Shown here one piece after another: positions 1 to 7,383 of a stretch of DNA of 7,383 bases (position 1 is the stretch's first letter; every line of letters begins with the position of its first letter). The DNA is taken from assembly GCA_963693365.1 (NCBI GenBank), contig CAVNZM010000111.1, positions 1 to 7,383 of the forward strand, in the 5' to 3' direction. Both the position numbers and the translations under genes were made by a program. The notes beneath the pieces were generated by a model that was given only the letters and a program-made list of their open reading frames with translations, had not been told where the DNA came from and did no database searches. This DNA is from Amoebidium appalachense. Its lineage: Eukaryota; Protista; Ichthyosporea.

Positions 1-28
1 TTCATCTCGCCCCCTCCTCCCTTCTTCT
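1..28 (+). repeat. Left terminal inverted repeat (may extend beyond the window start)
   Basis: TTCATCTCGCCCCCTCCTCCCTTCTTCT. Its reverse complement matches 7169-7197 with one substitution and one extra G. Confidence 0.9.
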
Positions 29-66
29 ATTCTAGGCTTCTGTCACGATATAAGATGGAATTTCCA

Positions 67-480
67 ATCCTAAATACAGAAAATGGCAAATTTCCGGAAA
101 ATCATCAAAATCTGGAAAATTGTCAAAAATCTGGAAAATGTCAAATTTCGGGAGTGACGACCTTGAGATTTGTAATTATAGCAGATCATATTTAGGATTT
201 TATAAGAATCTTAAATTGTAATTAACCTATTTATAAGGGAAAATAAGGGTAAATAATTTAAAAATCCTAAATACAGAAAATGGTAAAATCGATTTTTCGG
301 AGTGACGATCTTGGAAATTGTAATTTTAGTATGCCGTATTTTGGAATTTATAAGAATCTTAAAGAGGTATTAACTGATTTATAAGGTAAAATAAGGGGAA
401 ATAGTTTAAGATTAGGGGTACAGAAGATATCGAAATGTCAATTTTCGGGAGTGACGATCTGGAAAATTGTAATTTTAGCT
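67..480 (+). repeat. Left subterminal tandem array, ~148-149 bp period, about 2.5-3 diverged copies
   Basis: GGAGTGACGA recurs at 151, 299 and 448. TATAAGAATCTTAAA...ATTTATAAGG.AAAATAAGGG recurs in copies 1 and 2. Copy 1 carries extra short AAAATCTGGAAAAT(T)GTC duplications at ~105-145. Confidence 0.85.
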
Positions 481-492
481 GAGCAGGAATTG

Positions 493-531
493 GGTACCTA
501 CGGAAGCCTATGGAACTTTCGCGGTGCTCCA
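493..531 (+). repeat. Conserved 39-bp GC-rich motif, copy 1
   Basis: GGTACCTACGGAAGCCTATGGAACTTTCGCGGTGCTCCA. Confidence 0.9.
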
Positions 532-627
532 AATTATGGATTTTATATGATTCTTAAGGCAAAAAAGAAGAAAGTAAGGAAGTACTATGTTATAGTACTT
601 AATTCTTAGGAAATTTTAAAAGTAGGG

Positions 628-735
628 GCGAGTTGCAAGTCCTAGAGCATAAGTTTCTTAGCGATAAGGCTCTTTAGAGACTCTCACAATCAACTTGTCG
701 ATCGTAGGGATAAAAGCATAAGACTTTTATCTTAG
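628..735 (+). repeat. Dispersed repeat family B (GAGTTGCAAGT.CTAGA / CTTAGCGATAAGGCTC / GAGACTCTCAC / GCATAAGACT modules)
   Basis: The same modules recur at 1252-1275 and 1358-1445 on the plus strand and inverted at 2521-2690. Confidence 0.8.
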
Positions 736-758
736 TGAGAAAGCTCGACTGAGACTCA

Positions 759-911
759 ACCAGAAGGGAGTCGAGAGTATAATTGGGTTAACTACCAGAG
801 GAGAATCAAAAGTCTGATTGGGGGGAATTACGAGAGGCGAGAGTATGATTGGGTGACCTACCTGAGGCGAGTCGAAAGTCTGATTGGGGGAAACTACCAG
901 AGGCGAGTCAA
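759..911 (+). repeat. 35-36 bp tandem array, ~4.5 copies with alternating A/B units
   Basis: Units start at 759, 794, 830, 860 and 896. Consensus is ACCAGAGGCGAGTCGA(GAGTAT|AAGTCT)GATTGGG..... Confidence 0.85.
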
Positions 912-979
912 GGGTAGGTAAATTGGCATTTTTATTACTTTACCTAATCAAAATCGGGGATTTAACCGATCAGGGACTG

Positions 980-1016
980 GGTACCTACGGAAGCCTATGG
1001 AACTTTCGCGGTGCCC
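980..1016 (+). repeat. Conserved 39-bp motif, copy 2 (runs into a poly-C tract at 1014-1023)
   Basis: Identical to copy 1 through ...TTTCGCGGTGC. Confidence 0.9.
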
Positions 1017-1278
1017 CCCCCCCAATTTATGGACTTAATACTATTTATTAGAGCAGGTAATTCCTAAGGGTTAATAAGGTCGTTGTCGTTCCTTTTTATC
1101 TCTTTATACTATTGAGTATCTACAATAGTATACTCTATTAAATATTTATAATCTATTTTTTTTTGTGCGTACCTTGATTCTTATTGAAAGAGGTATCCTT
1201 TAGTTTGTACCTTGGTTCTTATTATTTGCATTAGAGTACTAGACGAGTGGTGGCTCAAGCGAGACTCTCACAATAAAT

Positions 1279-1358
1279 ACCAGAGGCGAGTCGAAAGTCT
1301 GATTGGCGGAATTACCAGAGGGGAGTCGAGAGTATGATGGGATGAATTACGAGAGGCG
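1279..1358 (+). repeat. Second array of the 35-bp family (~2.3 copies), flanked by identical 20-bp direct repeats
   Basis: Units start at 1279, 1314 and 1349. GGCTCAAGCGAGACTCTCAC occurs at 1252-1271 and 1358-1377. Confidence 0.85.
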
Positions 1359-1445
1359 GCTCAAGCGAGACTCTCACGACGAGTTGCAAGTTCTAGACGA
1401 GCTTGTTGTCGTATGAGGACAAGAGCATAAGACTATTTTCTTAGG
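1358..1445 (+). repeat. Repeat family B copy
   Basis: GAGACTCTCAC..GAGTTGCAAGTTCTAGA...TGTCGTATGAGGACAAGAGCATAAGACT; the reverse complement matches 2638-2690. Confidence 0.8.
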
Positions 1446-1476
1446 GAGGAGGCTCTCCAAGATTTAGAATGCCACA

Positions 1477-1645
1477 ATGATTGAATTAGTTGAAAAGAAT
1501 AAAGATGGCATCATTATTATCAGTATCAGTATTAATATGTTTATCTCAACTCGTCCTAGAAATATATATAATGATGTATATTAAAGCAGGTGCCTTTGTA
1601 GGATTATTAATAACAAATTTTTCCCTATCAATTTATATCGAAGTG
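1477..1645 (+). pseudogene. nad6: Probable 5' fragment of mitochondrial NADH dehydrogenase subunit 6
   Basis: ATG at 1477 (MIELVE), then a frameshift into a hydrophobic stretch MASLLSVSVLICLS..YIMMYIKAGAFVGLLITNFSLSIYIEV. This resembles the Nad6 N-terminal helices that end just before (I)VYVGA. The diagnostic motif itself is missing. Confidence 0.4.
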
Positions 1646-1693
1646 ATTGTACCAGATACGGTACTCGGAGACCATCATATTAAAAATATGATC

Positions 1694-2087
1694 ATGACAG
1701 CACATGTATTATCGAATCCCATATCAATTAGTTTTACCAAGTCCATGGCCAATTTACGCCTCTTTAGCAGCATTAGTATTCACAGTAAGTACTGTATGTT
1801 GATTTCATAATTATAAAAATGGAGATATAATGATGATTATCGATTTAGAACCACTTAGTTCCGAGGAGGAAATTCCTTGAATTGTTTGAGTTAGAAATTT
1901 CTCTTGAAGAGAAGAAGTAATGATTCCTTTCAGTGTATCATAAGCTTTATTATTCTTTTTAAATTTATGAGTTTACTTTAATAGCTGCCTTCCTCCTCGG
2001 TTGAATTAGGATTTAGTATCTCAAATTACTATATTCTATTGAAATTAAGGTATTAAAATCCAATACCTCTTAAATACTGCTATTCTT
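1694..2087 (+). pseudogene. cox3: Mitochondrial cytochrome c oxidase subunit 3 pseudogene (5' half, internally deleted and frameshifted)
   Basis: MTAHVLSN / frameshift / PYQLVLPSPWPIYASLAALVFTVSTVCW(TGA 1800)FHNYKNG matches HPYHLV.PSPWP. 1920-1997 reads MIPFSVS*ALLFFLNLW(TGA 1968)VYFNSCLPP, then VELG, matching MILFI.SE..FF...WA.F..SL.P..ELG. 2063-2087 reads IPL/NTAIL, matching PLLNT.IL. Confidence 0.9.
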
Positions 2088-2148
2088 AACTCCATCATCA
2101 CTTCTATTAGGGCCATCAGCATTAGTAAAACAAGGTGCGGTAAGTGGT
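2086..2148 (+). pseudogene. cox1: cox1 exon fragment upstream of a group I intron
   Basis: Translates LTPSSLLLGPSALVKQGAVSG, against the Cox1 consensus LPPSL.LL..S.LVE.GAGTG(WT). It ends in GGT, consistent with the U preceding a group I 5' splice site. Confidence 0.8.
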
Positions 2149-2336
2149 ACTAACATAAATGGTATACTTTAAATTTAGCCATATGTTGAGATGTAACAAT
2201 GGACAATCAGCAGAAAACCAAAATAAATTATATATTTATTAGTAGGATTCTCAGAAACTACAGGCTAAACTAACTATTTCATTATTATATAGAAACGTTT
2301 GGATAAAATATTCTAACTGCGTATAATATTGTATGC
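2149..2336 (+). other. Degenerate ORF-less group I intron (IB-like core) in cox1
   Basis: P-like ATATGTTGAGA at 2181; Q-like GACAATCAGCAG at 2202-2213; R-like CTCAGAAACTACA at 2250-2262 (consensus CTCAGAGACTACA). P3 pairing TTTAGCC (2174-2180) with GGCTAAA (2263-2269). Hairpins at 2222-2240 and 2319-2336. The S element is eroded. Confidence 0.8.
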
Positions 2337-2399
2337 TGTTATCCATTCTTATTCTAATTATAAACTCATTCTGGAGACTTAGTTAATTTAGCTATTTCA
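2337..2399 (+). pseudogene. cox1: cox1 exon fragment downstream of the group I intron
   Basis: The frame from 2340 reads YPFLF*L*THSGDLVNLAIS, against consensus YPPLS..Q.HSG.SVDLAIFS. Confidence 0.85.
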
Positions 2400-2520
2400 A
2401 CACCCATAGATTTTAAGCCTGATACGTTGAAGTACAATAAAAAATCTGTAATGTTGATTAGCCGAAAACCCTAAGTTTTCTACTTCCAGACAGCCTACGC
2501 TGAATGTAACTTTATCATTT

Positions 2521-2690
2521 AGAGTGTCTAAAGAGCCTTATCGCTAAGAAACGTTCTTATGCTCGGATAAATTCTACTTACTCGTACAAGGTGAATTGGT
2601 AATCTGATGATTACAAGAGTCTCTCTTGAGCCTTATCGCTAAGAGAAGAGTCTTATACTCTTGTCCTCATATGACGACAAACTTGTCTTA
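2521..2690 (-). repeat. Repeat family B, inverted copies
   Basis: AGAGTGTCTAAAGAGCCTTATCGCTAAGAAAC is close to the reverse complement of ~653-684. GAGCCTTATCGCTAAGA occurs twice. 2638-2690 matches the reverse complement of ~1395-1445. Confidence 0.85.
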
Positions 2691-3040
2691 TATTTACAAT
2701 CTGATAGCAGTGAATAGACGTTAATGTAATAAAGTGTTGATGTAATGTTCTTTTTGGAACTTGATATAAAGAATATCTTAATTTTGGTATAGGCTAAAAC
2801 AACCTAAAACTTTAAGTACTTTTAATATTAATAACCTTAAATCTACAACAACTCTGGACACAAGTAGCAAGCCTTCTTTAATTTTGCATTTTATGTGTAT
2901 TCACTAGAATATTATTATTATCAACTAAAGGAATATTATTTTTAGTTAGTATTTTACTTCCATTAGTTATATTTGCAGGATCAAAATTTAATTAAGCTCT
3001 CTTTGTTATTTAAACTTATGTATTCATATTCTTTAGCATG

Positions 3041-3088
3041 ATTACTTTTTATAAGTAATAAAATTTTCTCTCCCTCCCTAGTTAAGTA
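3041..3088 (-). pseudogene. Possible LAGLIDADG homing endonuclease C-terminal scrap
   Basis: The minus strand reads YLTREGEKILLLIKSN, resembling the HLT.EG...I..IK..MN tail of intron-encoded LAGLIDADG proteins. It is a short match only. Confidence 0.35.
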
Positions 3089-3110
3089 GTTATTTAATAC
3101 TAACTCTTGT

Positions 3111-3138
3111 TATTACATAATTGGAGATTTACATCATG
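3111..3138 (+). pseudogene. cox1: Possible cox1 scrap (heme-ligand YYVVAHFHYV region) immediately before the group II intron remnant
   Basis: Reads YYIIGDLHH(G), then ATGTAACG, which is GTGCGACG after three G>A or C>T changes. Weak on its own. Confidence 0.3.
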
Positions 3139-4810
3139 ATGTAACGATGCTTGAATTATCTGGGATACCAAATTCATAAGTTAAATTAACTATGTAGTAA
3201 TATAGCTAGGTATAAAAGATGGCAACTTCTAAATTCAAAATATGTAATGCATAGTTAGGTTTCCTTGAGAAATTTGTTCTTATGAGTTCGTACTAGAGTC
3301 TCAGTATAGTCACTGGTTTAAGGGCACTCGCATTAAAGTAGTTATAACTTGAAAGCTCTTTCAGTAGCTGATTGTGGGATGGGAGAACAAGATTAATAGA
3401 TCATTGTATCAGATTGAATAAACGAGTAGTATTAAGGATGGGGATTAGGTTTAAGAGTTCAAACTTCATATGAGATACGAGATGATGATTGAATAGTTAA
3501 TAATGGATTACTAAAAAGTATACCCTTTAGAGGTTTAAGCTACGCCTTGTATGAGAAGAATACTTAACCTTTTTAATGTTATAAAAGTCTAGATAAAGAC
3601 CTTGGTTATAGGGGAGGGAGGGCCTATACTTGTCTTGCGATTTACTTTTACATAGTGAGTAAATAGTTAGGAATGTAAAATAAATCAGCGGATGTTTACA
3701 ATCCATAACAGAGGTTTTTAAGCAAGGAGATATGGGAGACTTCGGGCTATCTATATTGTTGAAAAAGCTGAGGTAGCAGATGAATAGTAATAGCTGGATT
3801 AGATAACTAAAGCAGAAAAGCATATGGAACAGAGAATAATAACGATTATAGTTTGGGAGGTAAACGTGTTAAGGCTTCGGTAAAGGAGTTTAGGGTTAAT
3901 TCTTTGAGAAAGATATTGCTTGCGGGTCTTATTAAACTCGGAGAACTTATCAAAGCAAATGCTAATAACGAATTGCTTATTATTACTAAATTACGTATCA
4001 TTATTAGTAACATGGACATACTTATGACCGCATATTCTGTTAATAAGTCAAAACCTGGTAACTTTACTCCAGGATACAATAGAGGTCTTTTAAATGATAT
4101 TACCCAAAGAGATTTGAGCCCTTAGCCAGAGCCATTGGGTTTAGAACTTTCAGCTTTATACTTTCACGTTATGTTAAAATATCAAAGCCTAAAATAAGAT
4201 TACATCTCAAGGCATTATCTCTCCTGGAAACAAAATTATTTTAAAAACTATGATAATTGTGTTTGAAATCCTCTTAGAGTCCACATTCTTACTACAGTTC
4301 CATGATTTCCATATAGAGAGAGACTGTTATATTGCATTGAAAAGCTAACCCTGTGTACACTAAACTAGTTCTAATAAAAATTCAGACTAATGATGAAAAG
4401 GTTAAGCGTATTCTCATAGCTAAATTGCATACTAAAGGAATTAGAGGTGGCTTAGTCACTAACTCAAACGTTAAAAGAAGCAATTTGTAATATATGCAGA
4501 TAACATTCTTAGCGTTTTCATGGATATTAAAGAAGCTCTTTAAGCTTTCTAGGTTAAAGAACTTAAGTCTCCATTATTAGACGAATAATTTCCCATCACC
4601 TCCCCACGCTAAGGATAAGGAGGCGATGTTTCTTATACCTATGGTAACATTCATACGATACAAAAAGCAAATTATAAAAGCAATCTACGTTAAGAACAAA
4701 CGTGGAGTAGTAAGTTTAATAAAATGCACACACCTGTTAGTTCTTAGCATTAAACTCGTAATGAAATTGTAGGAAAAAGATTATTGTAATAAAGGTAAAA
4801 CTAGAATCTC
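3139..4810 (+). mobile_element. Degenerate group II intron (mitochondrial-lineage, IIA-like); both boundaries uncertain
   Basis: It contains the RT/maturase pseudogene. Upstream CTTCGGGCTATCTA...GAAAAAGCTGAGGTAGCAGATGAATAGTAATAG (~3740-3793) resembles IIA domain III. No recognisable domain V or VI remains. Confidence 0.6.
3853..4810 (+). pseudogene. Group II intron reverse transcriptase/maturase pseudogene
   Basis: RT0: IISNMDILMTAYSVNKSKPGNFTPG...LNDI (cf. AY..IKS.PGNMTPG.D..TLDGI). RT1: FSFILSRYVKISKPK. RT2 at 4211-4345: GIISPGNKIILKTMIIVFEILLESTFLLQFHDFHIERDCYIALKS (cf. GIPSPRDKIVQ...LE..F...SHGFRP.R.CHTAL). KANPVYTKL at 4341. RT5: FVIYADNIL, with YADN at 4493-4504. RT6/7: KELKSPL...IT.../AMFL. 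Domain X: KL*EKDYC at 4764-4787. Multiple frameshifts and stops. Confidence 0.92.
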
Positions 4811-5130
4811 CACTAGCTTAAAGAAGTTTTTGTGCACTTGGAAGAAACTTTGTCGTTAGACAGAAATTTATACTTTTGTTTACAAGACAGATGATTTACC
4901 ATTAAGTTATACTAACTAAAACTGTTCATCCAAGAGCTTGAATTAATAACACTTATATTGGAGAGACCCTAACAGAGTAACTCTGAATATTCAAAGTATT
5001 AAACTAATTTAGTTATAAAGATAATATAAATCTATAAAAGATTCTAAGTATTGAAAAAGTTTTACTGTAATAATAATACAACTTTAGTAGAAAAAGTCAA
5101 ACTTTCATAGGAAGGGTCCAACTAGGTTAG

Positions 5131-5331
5131 GAGAGATAATACACACTTAGGAAAGATCATGCACACTTAGTAAAGATCGTGCACACTTAAGAAAGATATT
5201 ACGCACTTAGAACAAAATCATGTGCATTTAGGAGAGATTCTGCACACTTAGGAAAGATCATGCGCACTTAAGAAAGATCTTGCGCACTTAGGAGAGATTT
5301 TGCACACTTAGAAAAGATCCTGTGCACCTGG
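5131..5331 (+). repeat. 20-bp minisatellite, 10 copies
   Basis: Consensus GAAAGATCWTGCACACTTAG. Units start at 5131, 5151, 5171, 5191, 5211 (21 bp), 5232, 5252, 5272, 5292 and 5312. Confidence 0.95.
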
Positions 5332-5640
5332 AAAGGTACCTTGTGATTTAATAGGAGTCTATACTCTTATCTTAGTATATATACAAATAATATTTATTTC
5401 AATTATCAGTCGCATACTTTACCTATTAAGCTAAATACCTTGAAAATTAGAAGACATTTAAGATTTGAAAATGCAAATTTTTGGTAGGAAGACAAATCTC
5501 ATAACTAAAATATAAGACTATCTGTCTTAATAATAAAGTACTAAACAAATGGTGGTTCTATTGTAACTTAATACGAGCATAGGAATTTAAGATTACTTTA
5601 ACAATCATAACTTGAACCCATAATATCTTAATAGAAAGTA

Positions 5641-6103
5641 ACTCTGTACGTCTTAAATACCCTATCTATTAAGCTACAGGGATAATCAATATTAAAAGGA
5701 GTTACATTAACATGCTTCACCAATTAAGTTTGATGCTTGTAACATATCTCGAATAAGAATTGAATTTATAACATTTACATTGGAAGAGAAAGTAGAATTA
5801 CCGTCGAAACTCTGTACGTCTCAAATATCCTATCTATTGAGCTACAGGGATAATCAATATTAAAAGAAGTTACATTAACATGCTTCACCAATTAAATTTG
5901 ATGCTTGTAACATATCTCAAATAAGAATTGAATTTATAACATTTACATTGGAAAAGAAAGTAGAATTACCGTGGAAACTCTGTACGTCTCAAATACCCTA
6001 TCTATTGAGCTACAGGGGTAATCAATATTAAAAGGAGTTACATTAACATGCTTCACCAAATAAGTTTGATGCTTGTGACATATCTCGAATAAGAATTAAA
6101 TTT
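5641..6103 (+). repeat. 168-bp tandem repeat, ~2.75 near-identical copies
   Basis: ACTCTGTACGTC starts at 5641, 5809 and 5977. Copies differ by only a few substitutions. Confidence 0.97.
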
Positions 6104-6111
6104 CTACTCTA

Positions 6112-6215
6112 CTAAATTACAAAAATGGTAATTCACCCTAATCGGCTAAAATTACAAGAATGACAATTCACCCTGGTTGGCTAAAGTTACAACGATGGCA
6201 ATTCACCCTGATCGG
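6112..6215 (+). repeat. 34-35 bp tandem repeat, 3 copies
   Basis: CTAAA.TTACAA..ATGRYAATTCACCCT..T.GG at 6112, 6146 and 6181. An inverted relative lies at ~917-975 (GGTAAATTGGCATTTTTATTACTTTA; CCGATCAGGG). Confidence 0.9.
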
Positions 6216-6281
6216 GATTTAGGAATTGGATTTTCATCTTATATACTAATAGAAACTAGGTGTAAGAGTAGAGTACAAGTG

Positions 6282-6320
6282 GGTACCTACGGGAATCGAC
6301 GGAACTTTCGCGGTGCTTCA
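6282..6320 (+). repeat. Conserved 39-bp motif, copy 3
   Basis: GGTACCTACGGGAATCGACGGAACTTTCGCGGTGCTTCA. Confidence 0.9.
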
Positions 6321-6534
6321 ACCTACGAATTAGACTTAGGAGTCTAATGGACTAATACGTCTCGACTCAAAAAGTACTTGATTTACTATTAAAGATTATT
6401 ATTAATTCCATAAAGTCCAATTCTTGATCTGCTAAATTTCCGATTACCAAATTCGTTCCTTCTGGATCAAGATTTTTAACAATTTACCATTATCTGTAAA
6501 TAGGATCTTAATTATCATCTTATATACTGAAGCT

Positions 6535-6573
6535 TGGAGCCCCGCGAAAGTTCCGTCGATTTCCGTAGGTACC
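6535..6573 (-). repeat. Conserved 39-bp motif, copy 4
   Basis: Reverse complement reads GGTACCTACGGAAATCGACGGAACTTTCGCGGGGCTCCA. Confidence 0.9.
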
Positions 6574-6588
6574 GAATGATTTGATGCT

Positions 6589-6641
6589 ACTTCTAACATT
6601 GAATAGTTTAATTCAACTTCTAACATTGAATAGTTTAATTC
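6589..6641 (+). repeat. 27-bp perfect tandem duplication
   Basis: ACTTCTAACATTGAATAGTTTAATTC at 6589-6614 and 6616-6641. Confidence 0.95.
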
Positions 6642-6844
6642 TACTCCTTTCTTCCATTTAAGATCTATAATTTGTTAAGCCTCCGATTATCAGAATCGTC
6701 ACGTCTGAATCGAGATTTTCAAAATCGGCTTCTAACCCTATTCCATTTTCCTACTATTGAAGGATTTAATTCAACTCCTAGGGTATTAATAACCTAATAC
6801 TCTATTCTTTCATTGTCTTTAATATTCTTATTAATTGCCTAAAC

Positions 6845-6883
6845 TGGAGCACCGCGAAAGTTCCGTAGATTTCCGTAGGTACC
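6845..6883 (-). repeat. Conserved 39-bp motif, copy 5
   Basis: Reverse complement reads GGTACCTACGGAAATCTACGGAACTTTCGCGGTGCTCCA. Confidence 0.9.
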
Positions 6884-6921
6884 AAATTATAATCTGTTTA
6901 AACTCCAATGGCAGATGCGTC

Positions 6922-7051
6922 ACTTCTGTATTCTGAATTTTAAACTAAATTACCCTTATTTACCCTTATAAATATGTTAATAACAATTTAAGATTTCTAT
7001 TGCATCCAAAAATCCAAGACGGCCACTCGGCAATCCAAGACGGCCACTCGG
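6922..7051 (-). repeat. Right subterminal copy of the ~149-bp family plus a 21-bp tandem duplication
   Basis: The reverse complement of 6922-7012 (ATCTTAAATTGTTATTAACATATTTATAAGGGTAAATAAGGGTAA...AATACAGAAG) aligns to ~190-280. AATCCAAGACGGCCACTCGG occurs at 7011-7030 and 7032-7051 and is a variant of the CGGAGTGACGATCTTGG motif on the minus strand. Confidence 0.85.
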
Positions 7052-7168
7052 AAATCATAAAATTACCCCTCCCTAGTTACATGCCTAGAATAAGAGTAGA
7101 GAGAGATATCTAATTATCATACACCCACCCTATATCTCAAAATACCCCTATATACAAAGCTTCAAGTA

Positions 7169-7197
7169 AGAAGAAGAGAGGAGGGGGGCGAGATGAA
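7169..7197 (-). repeat. Right terminal inverted repeat
   Basis: AGAAGAAGAGAGGAGGGGGGCGAGATGAA is the reverse complement of 1-28 (27 of 29 positions). Composition changes just after it. Confidence 0.9.
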
Positions 7198-7383
7198 ATA
7201 ACTAGACTGGGCCCCCCGAACTAGATGTGTCTGATGGTGATAGCAAATGTCATTCGAAGAACAATCAGGAAACCCATTAGTGTGACAACCAATCAGAATG
7301 AAGCAACGGCAGCCTGAGCCTGCGGCGCTACAGCCACTGCTCACTGCATCAATGATCGGTTTTACGCAAATGTAGTTTTGGCG
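7198..7383. other. Higher-GC flank outside the right TIR (unrelated DNA or chimeric join)
   Basis: Hand count gives 87 G+C in 7201-7380 (~48%), against a strongly AT-rich interior. None of the repeat families appear here. Confidence 0.5.

Follow-up and report, generated by a model that had tools for sequence, protein, structure and literature searches.

Bases 1–7226 of the window, as we call the whole stretch of 7,383 nucleotides analysed here, very probably represent one linear chromosome from a multipartite mitochondrial genome, that of Amoebidium parasiticum or of a congener very close to it, carried along probably as a passive passenger. Because it holds only broken genes, a part of cox3 near-identical to that of A. 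parasiticum and an end common to many molecules, this 7.2-kb molecule is likely a "junk" chromosome of an already described, many-piece linear mitochondrial genome, and it is probably kept by its ends alone. The host taxon, which a preliminary description of this DNA had considered impossible to name from the sequence, can be named since the broken cox3 piece at 1719–1847 has its best match, among 123 Cox3 proteins compared, in A. parasiticum (AAN04067.1, 39/43 identical; runners-up 32/43, then 25/43). Judged from the sequence, the origin is Amoebidium, a match that holds at the level of the genus; the Cox3 tree was a quick version of 51 of the proteins with the window's fragment left out, and the 80 distant mitochondrial loci (51–63% identity) gathered by the Cox3 locus search were used for reference only. 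The proposal that this is one molecule of an Amoebidium-type genome is supported by this Cox3 match, by contig depth and by contigs that dead-end at the terminal repeat.

Terminal repeats and mirrored subterminal elements

Positions 1–28 of the window pair in inverted orientation with 7169–7197 over 27/28 aligned letters with one gap (score 46, against a shuffled maximum of 27). This pairing had been described as a 28-bp terminal inverted repeat; the pairing stands but the boundary does not, as the shared end runs on to 7220–7226 in the run contigs. The true terminal repeat is longer, about 43 bp (7184–7226), its presumed right end being placed by a depth peak seen in 4/4 runs and by contigs ending at 7220–7226. 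On the left, only the inner part of the repeat is present (1–17, matching the right repeat, reverse-complemented, at 17/17 positions); the outer ~29 bp were apparently clipped by the assembly, and are deduced from contigs, one of which bears the left-type 5-G tract and continues into the outer repeat (joint 5/7194). For the segment 7184–7226, RNA-style folding predicts a fold-back structure with a G/C stem (z −2.8; 2/200 shuffles equally good).

This end sequence is common to tens of other molecules in the same runs, which bears out the suggestion that ends are shared across high-coverage contigs: many variant contigs carry it, and the depth summed at 7184–7207 peaks at 75–150x the molecule's own depth in runs X1, X2 and X5, summed depths counting overlapping contigs twice and not being copy numbers. 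In X2 the summed depth then drops from 30,725 to 85 within ~35 bases. Contigs stop at 7220–7226, although contig ends cannot prove a physical end of the DNA, and only 2% (X2) and 4% (X5) of them continue into unlike sequence. X1 has no cover at 7124–7159, which X2 and X5 do cover. Searches of viral_contigs and genome_contigs turned up the terminal repeat in 0 stretches.

Behind these repeats, the two ends mirror each other, as had been noted: the left end compared with the reverse-complemented right end scores 181 (100 shuffles: 34 ± 5, maximum 45), and a 148-bp subterminal unit identified by repeat search (141–485, forward strand; 2.2 copies at 146–479) recurs as an inverted partial copy at 6924–7011 (72/88). 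A variable purine/pyrimidine tract and a subterminal element, E1 (38–100), occupy 18–100, with many variant contigs in the runs, and E1 reappears inverted at 6217–6244 and 6481–6525. A 38-bp motif, M, has five copies in the window and none in 200 shuffles. Four face inward, at 493–530 (left type) and 980–1017 on the forward strand, and at 6536–6573 (right type; 6542–6573 in the motif search) and 6852–6883 on the reverse strand, the last lying with the inverted partial 148-bp unit in a reverse-strand block (6846–7011); the fifth, a right-type copy at 6282–6319 on the forward strand, is the inverted partner of the 6536–6573 copy and faces outward, so that the inward orientation ascribed to these conserved motifs holds for four of the five. 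Left and right types differ at a few positions; no conserved hairpin was detected in the motif (z −1.8 to +1.0), which occurred in 0 stretches of metagenome_contigs and viral_contigs and in 0/82 fetched loci.

The forward-strand region 629–1460 combines copies of a block A (629–760 and 1378–1460), 35-bp arrays (759–916 and 1270–1370) and the second motif M, with high summed depth and variant contigs. Block A also has an internal inverted copy at 2521–2700 on the reverse strand (matching the left copies at 39/40 and 51/61 positions), possibly the relic of a former chromosome end, which is spanned by a 3,902-bp contig. Other arrays comprise a 20-bp tandem array at 5127–5330 and, at 5640–6215, a 168-bp array (2.8 copies, 94%) with a 35-bp array.

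Broken cargo of the interior

No intact gene was found in the molecule, in line with the earlier view that all its cargo is dead: under code 4 no stop-free frame exceeds 113 aa, a length reached in 72.5% of 200 shuffles, and ARAGORN returned 0 tRNAs. Gene remnants lie at 1522–2396, 3772–4342 (weakly to ~4700) and 5384–5440. The interior had been described as consisting of nothing but broken genes and introns; the remnants are indeed there, but that wording goes too far, as about 2 kb (~2700–3770, 4700–5120 and 5440–5640) matched nothing in our searches and the rest consists of tandem arrays.

The most elaborate remnant is a forward-strand chimera of cox1 and cox3. An N-terminal cox1 pseudogene piece with one frameshift near 1576 (1522–1705; profile E 1.5e-5; frameshift-aware score 92, shuffled maximum 39) precedes a cox3 pseudogene lodged within cox1 (1719–2011; residues 5–113 of 262; Pfam COX3 E 7.3e-6), which is damaged by 63 unrelated bases (1848–1910), a stop at 1941 and a frameshift near 1999. 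Aligned to AAN04067.1, its pieces fall from the near-identity given above to 16/29. A complete Cox3 of 262 aa has been recorded from A. parasiticum; residues 114–262 were not found here, the best score of 48, against a null of 39–40 from only 4 shuffles, giving an unconvincing alignment. The TGA at 1968, pointed out as lying at a conserved Trp position, aligns to W99 of Cox3, and W32 is likewise matched by a TGA, at 1800; at these two pseudogene sites UGA thus reads as Trp, as reported for A. parasiticum (PMC7027106). The cox1 pseudogene resumes at 2086–2157, up to its GWTV position (score 54, shuffled maximum 37), and its next exon piece, with two stops, follows at 2340–2396 (score 44, shuffled maximum 36). 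The intervening 2158–2339 lies between consecutive cox1 codons (residues 141/142 of reference L001) and is a putative decayed, ORF-less group I intron; Rfam Intron_gpI matches 2171–2270 at E 0.81, far under its gathering score. A by-eye LAGLIDADG reading of 2230–2260 was dropped in favour of this group I core.

Further along the forward strand, 3772–4342 is a dead mitochondrial group II intron reverse transcriptase with two frameshifts (scores 192–224, shuffled maximum 45). It has nine relatives at E ≤ 0.001, RVT_1 being present in 7/9, and a weak continuation with a YADD-like word extends to ~4700 (score only 42–45). A word-indexed search with this piece gave 0/163 candidates, two of its pieces had no match in PDB, and Rfam detected no group II RNA domain. 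On the reverse strand, 5384–5440 is a tRNA remnant with a GAU anticodon and no T arm (Rfam tRNA 22.9 bits, under the gathering score of 29); nothing in the Rfam search reached gathering score. Pfam whole-frame scans (6/6), 57 short pieces and 9 NCBIfam pieces gave weak, unrelated matches only; ORF-cluster profiles (60/94 clusters) recovered cox1 and cox3 only, apart from one weak match to the tail (iE 0.035) that we attribute to chance, and counts of bacterial promoters and terminators were at chance level. Clean, non-redundant gene modules of the Diplonema type were not found, stops and frameshifts interrupting every piece and the species having the complete Cox3 mentioned above.

Depth in public runs and alternative readings

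Of the 32 pieces listed on the window, 30 show 0–1 differences and flat depth. The molecule outweighs the unique contig of the right tail, presumed single-copy and nuclear, 82.6 to 18.7 in X1 (4.4x; the window itself may come from this run) and 8000 to 109.5 in X5 (73x). X2 (17 million letters assembled) has 0.84 of the molecule's words at depth ~170–225 and lacks the unique tail contig, which is absent from X17 as well. The list of runs carrying the molecule included no RNA run. Depth thus indirectly indicates a mitochondrial location and a copy number independent of the nucleus, and the idea of a free, high-copy mitochondrial-type molecule is supported. The tail itself (7227–7383), outside the molecule, comprises a high-copy repeat (7228–7306) and the unique low-depth contig (7280–7383). 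Its GC content is 48% against 33%; from depth and GC, 7280–7383 appears nuclear, and all 157 tail bases probably derive from the nucleus, attached either by the assembler or at a NUMT. Comparison with plasmid and phage records gave no match for the tail.

That junction invites the reading of the window as solely a NUMT of an Amoebidium mitochondrial chromosome, decayed in the nucleus: the genes are decayed, and next to the terminal repeat comes GC-richer sequence that behaves as nuclear. We consider this very improbable, as the depth is not that of a single nuclear copy, its ratio to the tail's unique contig differs between runs and X2 has the molecule without that contig; moreover, all examined contigs over 7267 differ there from the window, and 7226/7228 is bridged by 0/32 of the pieces listed, 501 further pieces lying beyond that list. 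Because contigs drop rare variants, a single-copy NUMT could nevertheless coexist with the free molecule. The same non-nuclear depth leaves next to no probability for a nuclear, non-autonomous TIR DNA transposon with captured mitochondrial DNA; such elements, too, have terminal inverted repeats and subterminal repeats and come in large families, but contigs end at the repeat rather than in varied flanks (2–4% run on in X2 and X5), and scans of Pfam and ORF pieces gave no transposase match.

An assembly composite, in which at least two real mitochondrial chromosomes were joined through shared repeats, would explain the end-like blocks inside the molecule and has a precedent in the doubtful join at 7226/7227 of the same assembly. 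Repeat blocks break every contig path: no listed contig covers the whole molecule, and links through 491–1131, 5712–6030 and 6563–6854 depend on matching depth and the window's assembly. This explanation is nonetheless extremely improbable, given that 1811–5712 is a single contig in X1 and 1811–4721 in X3, both crossing the internal block, and that the unique pieces on either side have similar depth in each run (X1 67–94). The molecule might instead be mitochondrial yet functional, selection keeping it as a non-coding RNA, as origins or promoters acting in trans or as a needed recombination template. The 0–1 differences across runs of four studies, the unexplained 2 kb and the transcription possible from "empty" mitochondrial chromosomes in plants (PMC4647634) speak for it; yet every recognisable cargo item is broken, Rfam has nothing at gathering score and cross-run identity may mirror one laboratory strain, so that we regard function as quite improbable.

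Origin, upkeep and relation to known systems

The junk passenger reading fits these observations; "selfish" over-replication goes beyond the data. The molecule may have been built by recombination between chromosomes, as suggested by cox3 inside cox1, the internal inverted end block (2521–2700) and nested end elements at ~6200–6570, and gene conversion from an intact copy has probably since renewed the near-perfect 5' cox3 patch. As for the ends, the ~43-bp repeat could serve as a telomere or origin, perhaps via its fold-back, and since the replication machinery likely acts on a terminal repeat common to all chromosomes, passive upkeep would follow. In a more far-reaching version, which we hold to be rather unlikely, this fold-back repeat would be a sufficient cis-acting replicon, with any capped DNA copied at about chromosome dose. 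Amoebidium mitochondria would then carry B-chromosome-like passengers, grown by fusion with gene-bearing chromosomes, patched from these by gene conversion and able to insert, tip first, into repeats of the nucleus, with 7226/7227 then a true junction.

As the architecture is already in print, for Amoebidium itself, it would not surprise specialists. In A. parasiticum, a 2003 description gave several hundred linear mitochondrial chromosomes whose ends are shared (Burger et al. 2003, as cited in PMC2518934, PMC7027106, PMC8303319, PMC7194472, PMC2151934 and PMC3268669), with an inverted terminal repeat and shared subterminal sequences on every chromosome (PMC2518934, section 15), and the mitogenome is reported as about 65% sequenced (PMC7027106); that the same ends flank intact genes is taken only from papers citing Burger et al. 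2003. Our literature search returned no paper with Amoebidium end sequences or the chromosome in question and, Burger et al. 2003 being beyond reach, we claim no absence from print. The molecule resembles A. parasiticum mtDNA in its Cox3 match, UGA read as Trp, inverted terminal repeats with shared subterminal sequences, many molecules, group I and II introns and a low coding share (~20%). It differs in lacking an intact gene despite its 7.2 kb; non-coding chromosomes in the 2003 description are reportedly mostly small, and the size range given there is reportedly about 0.3–8.3 kb. Linear mitochondrial plasmids (invertrons) of fungi and plants are likewise linear molecules of several kb with terminal inverted repeats, and they encode DNA and RNA polymerases; here, no long ORF and no Pfam match to a family-B DNA polymerase or RNA polymerase was found, and the ends are common to a large family. 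The linear multipartite mtDNAs of Hydra, cubozoans and Polytomella share with it identical inverted terminal repeats on all chromosomes and, in Hydra, partial cox1 copies near the ends (PMC2518934), but they consist of few chromosomes, described as dividing the gene set, and the consulted sections describe no dead-cargo molecule there. The "empty" chromosomes of Silene noctiflora are also gene-less, with unexplained upkeep, but these plant chromosomes map as circles and are not linear molecules ending in a common terminal repeat (PMC4647634).

The terminal repeat provides a handle by which every chromosome can be fished from existing runs and tallied as gene-bearing or junk, which bears on the replication and inheritance of Amoebidium's hundreds of mitochondrial chromosomes. 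In such a large, all-pseudogene chromosome, patches of different age directly document inter-chromosome recombination; the chromosome also offers a natural test of maintenance by the ends alone.

Depth of the molecule and the nuclear question

The molecule at positions 1-7226 has shared ends, yielded no intact gene and is present at a non-nuclear dose. The stretch occurs whole or in part in 20 of the 24 public sequencing runs listed, with at least half of its words in 15, across 6 studies. Contigs of six of these 24 runs were compared, over the whole window (X1, X2, X3 and X7) or over 7040-7383 (X1, X2, X5 and X17). Among the 32 matches listed for the whole window, 29 pieces showed no difference, one showed a single difference, and two were paralogous end pieces with 15. 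Such agreement between studies could come from a single strain and does not prove selection, and X1, possibly the window's own source, is not independent. Depth was level within each run (X1 67-94, X2 169-226, X3 5-8, X7 5-14) and 1811-5712 formed a single X1 contig, while the ends and motif blocks reached summed depths far above the rest, from many variant contigs.

The tail at 7227-7383 (48% GC past 7227) bears on whether the molecule is a nuclear insert. It includes a high-copy repeat (7228-7306), whose contigs all carry a difference from the window at 7267 and join a different sequence upstream. This repeat is followed by a unique contig of 739/746 bp, at depth 18.7 in X1 and 109.5 in X5 and absent from X2 and X17, which we infer to be nuclear single copy. 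Taken as such, it is exceeded by the molecule 4.4-fold in X1 and 73-fold in X5; X2, from the same sample as X5, holds 17 million assembled letters against 205 million, with the molecule at ~200x. Such a swinging ratio fits organelle DNA and not a nuclear insert. Since no piece bridging 7226/7228 was found among the 32 matches listed for 7040-7383, the 7226/7227 join would be a mis-assembly or a minor NUMT: a chimeric join in the assembly is likely, a real end-first NUMT possible.

Mirrored ends and a shared terminal repeat

The mirrored end repeats reported in the preliminary description are real. Positions 1-28 pair with 7169-7197 at 27 of 28 bases with one gap, a 148-bp unit (146-479, 2.2 copies) recurs as an inverted partial copy at 6924-7011 (72/88), and the left end aligned to the reversed right end scores 181, against 34 ± 5 in 100 shuffles. 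Three further elements were labelled in the present analysis: E1 (38-100) has inverted recurrences at 6217-6244 and 6481-6525, block A (629-760 and 1378-1460) has an inverted interior copy at 2521-2700, and the 38-bp motif M is present in five copies, with no match in 200 shuffles. The inward orientation ascribed to these motifs holds for four copies of M, but the copy at 6282, partner of that at 6536-6573, faces outward; two subtypes can be told apart, one on the left and one on the right. A 168-bp array at 5640-6106 (2.8 copies, 94% identity) represents a recent tandem duplication.

The terminal repeat had been drawn too short, as run contigs common to the ends pass its former 28-bp boundary and end at 7220-7226, giving a repeat of ~43 bp (7184-7226). 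Depth peaked at 7184-7207 in all four runs (X1 11,081; X2 30,725; X5 598,548; X17 1,740), at 75-150 times the molecule's own depth in the runs where the latter is known, which we take as tens of ends rather than an exact number because overlapping contigs are double-counted. Beyond the peak, depth in X2 fell to 85 within ~35 bases, and 2% of the compared contigs entered unlike sequence. A contig carrying a left-end variant runs on into the outer repeat, and the window's left end is thus clipped. A fold-back of the repeat on a G/C stem of seven pairs is predicted (z -2.8, equalled in 2 of 200 shuffles), a weak hint that folding might bear on end upkeep. In other molecules, as seen at 7058-7112 and from loose ends at 7103 and 7207, degenerate copies of the subterminal unit stand in tandem immediately inward of the terminal repeat; the make-up of the end arrays thus differs between chromosomes.

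Broken gene cargo and host affinity

No gene was found intact: under code 4, the longest frame free of stops reached 113 aa, matched by 72.5% of 200 shuffles, ARAGORN returned no tRNA in the window, and Rfam gave nothing at a gathering score there. The recognisable cargo consists of remnants, on the plus strand unless stated. These comprise a cox1 N-terminus (1522-1705; score 92 vs a shuffled maximum of 39), cox3 residues 5-113 (1719-2011; Pfam E 7.3e-6) and two further cox1 pieces (2086-2157, 54 vs 37; 2340-2396, 44 vs 36), the cox1 scores being drawn from 10 references with 20 shuffles each. The last two pieces meet at consecutive residues 141/142 of one reference, around an insert of 182 bp that coincides with a weak group I match (E 0.81); this position is a common cox1 intron site. 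Further along lie a dead group II intron reverse transcriptase (3772-4342; frameshift-aware scores 192-224 vs a shuffled maximum of 45) and, on the minus strand, a tRNA remnant (5384-5440; 22.9 bits). Nine relatives of the reverse transcriptase were recovered at E<=0.001, with RVT_1 in seven, maturase and HNH domains in one and a fusion to a cox1 exon in one. The earlier picture of an interior made only of broken genes and introns is overstated: ~2 kb (2700-3770, 4700-5120 and 5440-5640) gave no match in profile, Pfam or Rfam searches. At loose ends at 2782-2815 and 2195-2234, related contigs continue into sequence that resembles, on inspection by eye, a tRNA 3' half and a better-kept group I intron core, a hint that the family includes gene-bearing molecules.

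The host, held at first to be unnameable from the sequence, is indicated by cox3. A search with this piece led to a relative, the Cox3 protein P0001, whose neighbours include a cluster with A. parasiticum Cox3 (AAN04067.1, P0139); 1719-1847 matches the latter at 39 of 43 residues, top of the 123 Cox3 proteins compared (next 32/43 and 25/43). The proposed TGA at a conserved Trp (1968) falls on Cox3 W99, and a second TGA on W32. A later patch (1911-1997), separated from the former by 63 unrelated bases, matches A. parasiticum Cox3 at only 16 of 29 residues (Fisher p 0.0013 against 39/43, for patches picked after inspection of the alignment). The two patches therefore seem to differ in age, and 1719-1847 may be a recent gene conversion onto an old cox3 pseudogene. 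Run contigs break at ~1765-1811, a stretch common to other molecules. P0001 and P0002, Cox3 proteins from contigs of 2,116 and 1,566 bp, share 76% identity with A. parasiticum Cox3 and group as its sister in a quick tree; they may come from another ichthyosporean whose mitogenome is fragmented. P0134, a Cox3 fragment assigned by its label to a Mycoplasmatales genome bin, falls in the cluster of P0003, itself near the Amoebidium group, and probably entered that bin as contamination from a eukaryotic mitochondrion.

Upkeep, origin and the known Amoebidium mitogenome

Replication and end upkeep would operate through the terminal repeat present on every chromosome, and a molecule with both ends would be copied regardless of its cargo. 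A cox1::cox3 chimera and end-like blocks in the interior suggest that recombination between chromosomes built the molecule. The term 'selfish', applied to it earlier, is not warranted by its dose: in X1, the depths of other contigs in the family lie between ~27 and 290, some possibly sums, and a depth of 82 is therefore unremarkable.

The mtDNA of A. parasiticum is described as several hundred linear chromosomes totalling over 200 kb, ~20% coding and ~65% sequenced, with UGA=Trp, group I and II introns and a 262-aa Cox3 (PMC7027106). Every chromosome is described as carrying an ITR together with 5' and 3' oriented sequences, for which a role as transcription start and stop signals was proposed (PMC2518934). 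These data come from papers citing Burger et al. 2003. Related literature comprises PMC8303319, PMC7194472, PMC2151934, PMC3268669, PMC11244446 and PMC4647634. Set beside these descriptions, the molecule is very probably one more chromosome of the known Amoebidium genome, to which our analysis adds a corrected end (7184-7226), a map of the cargo and, on a large chromosome lacking genes, signs of recombination and of patchy conversion.
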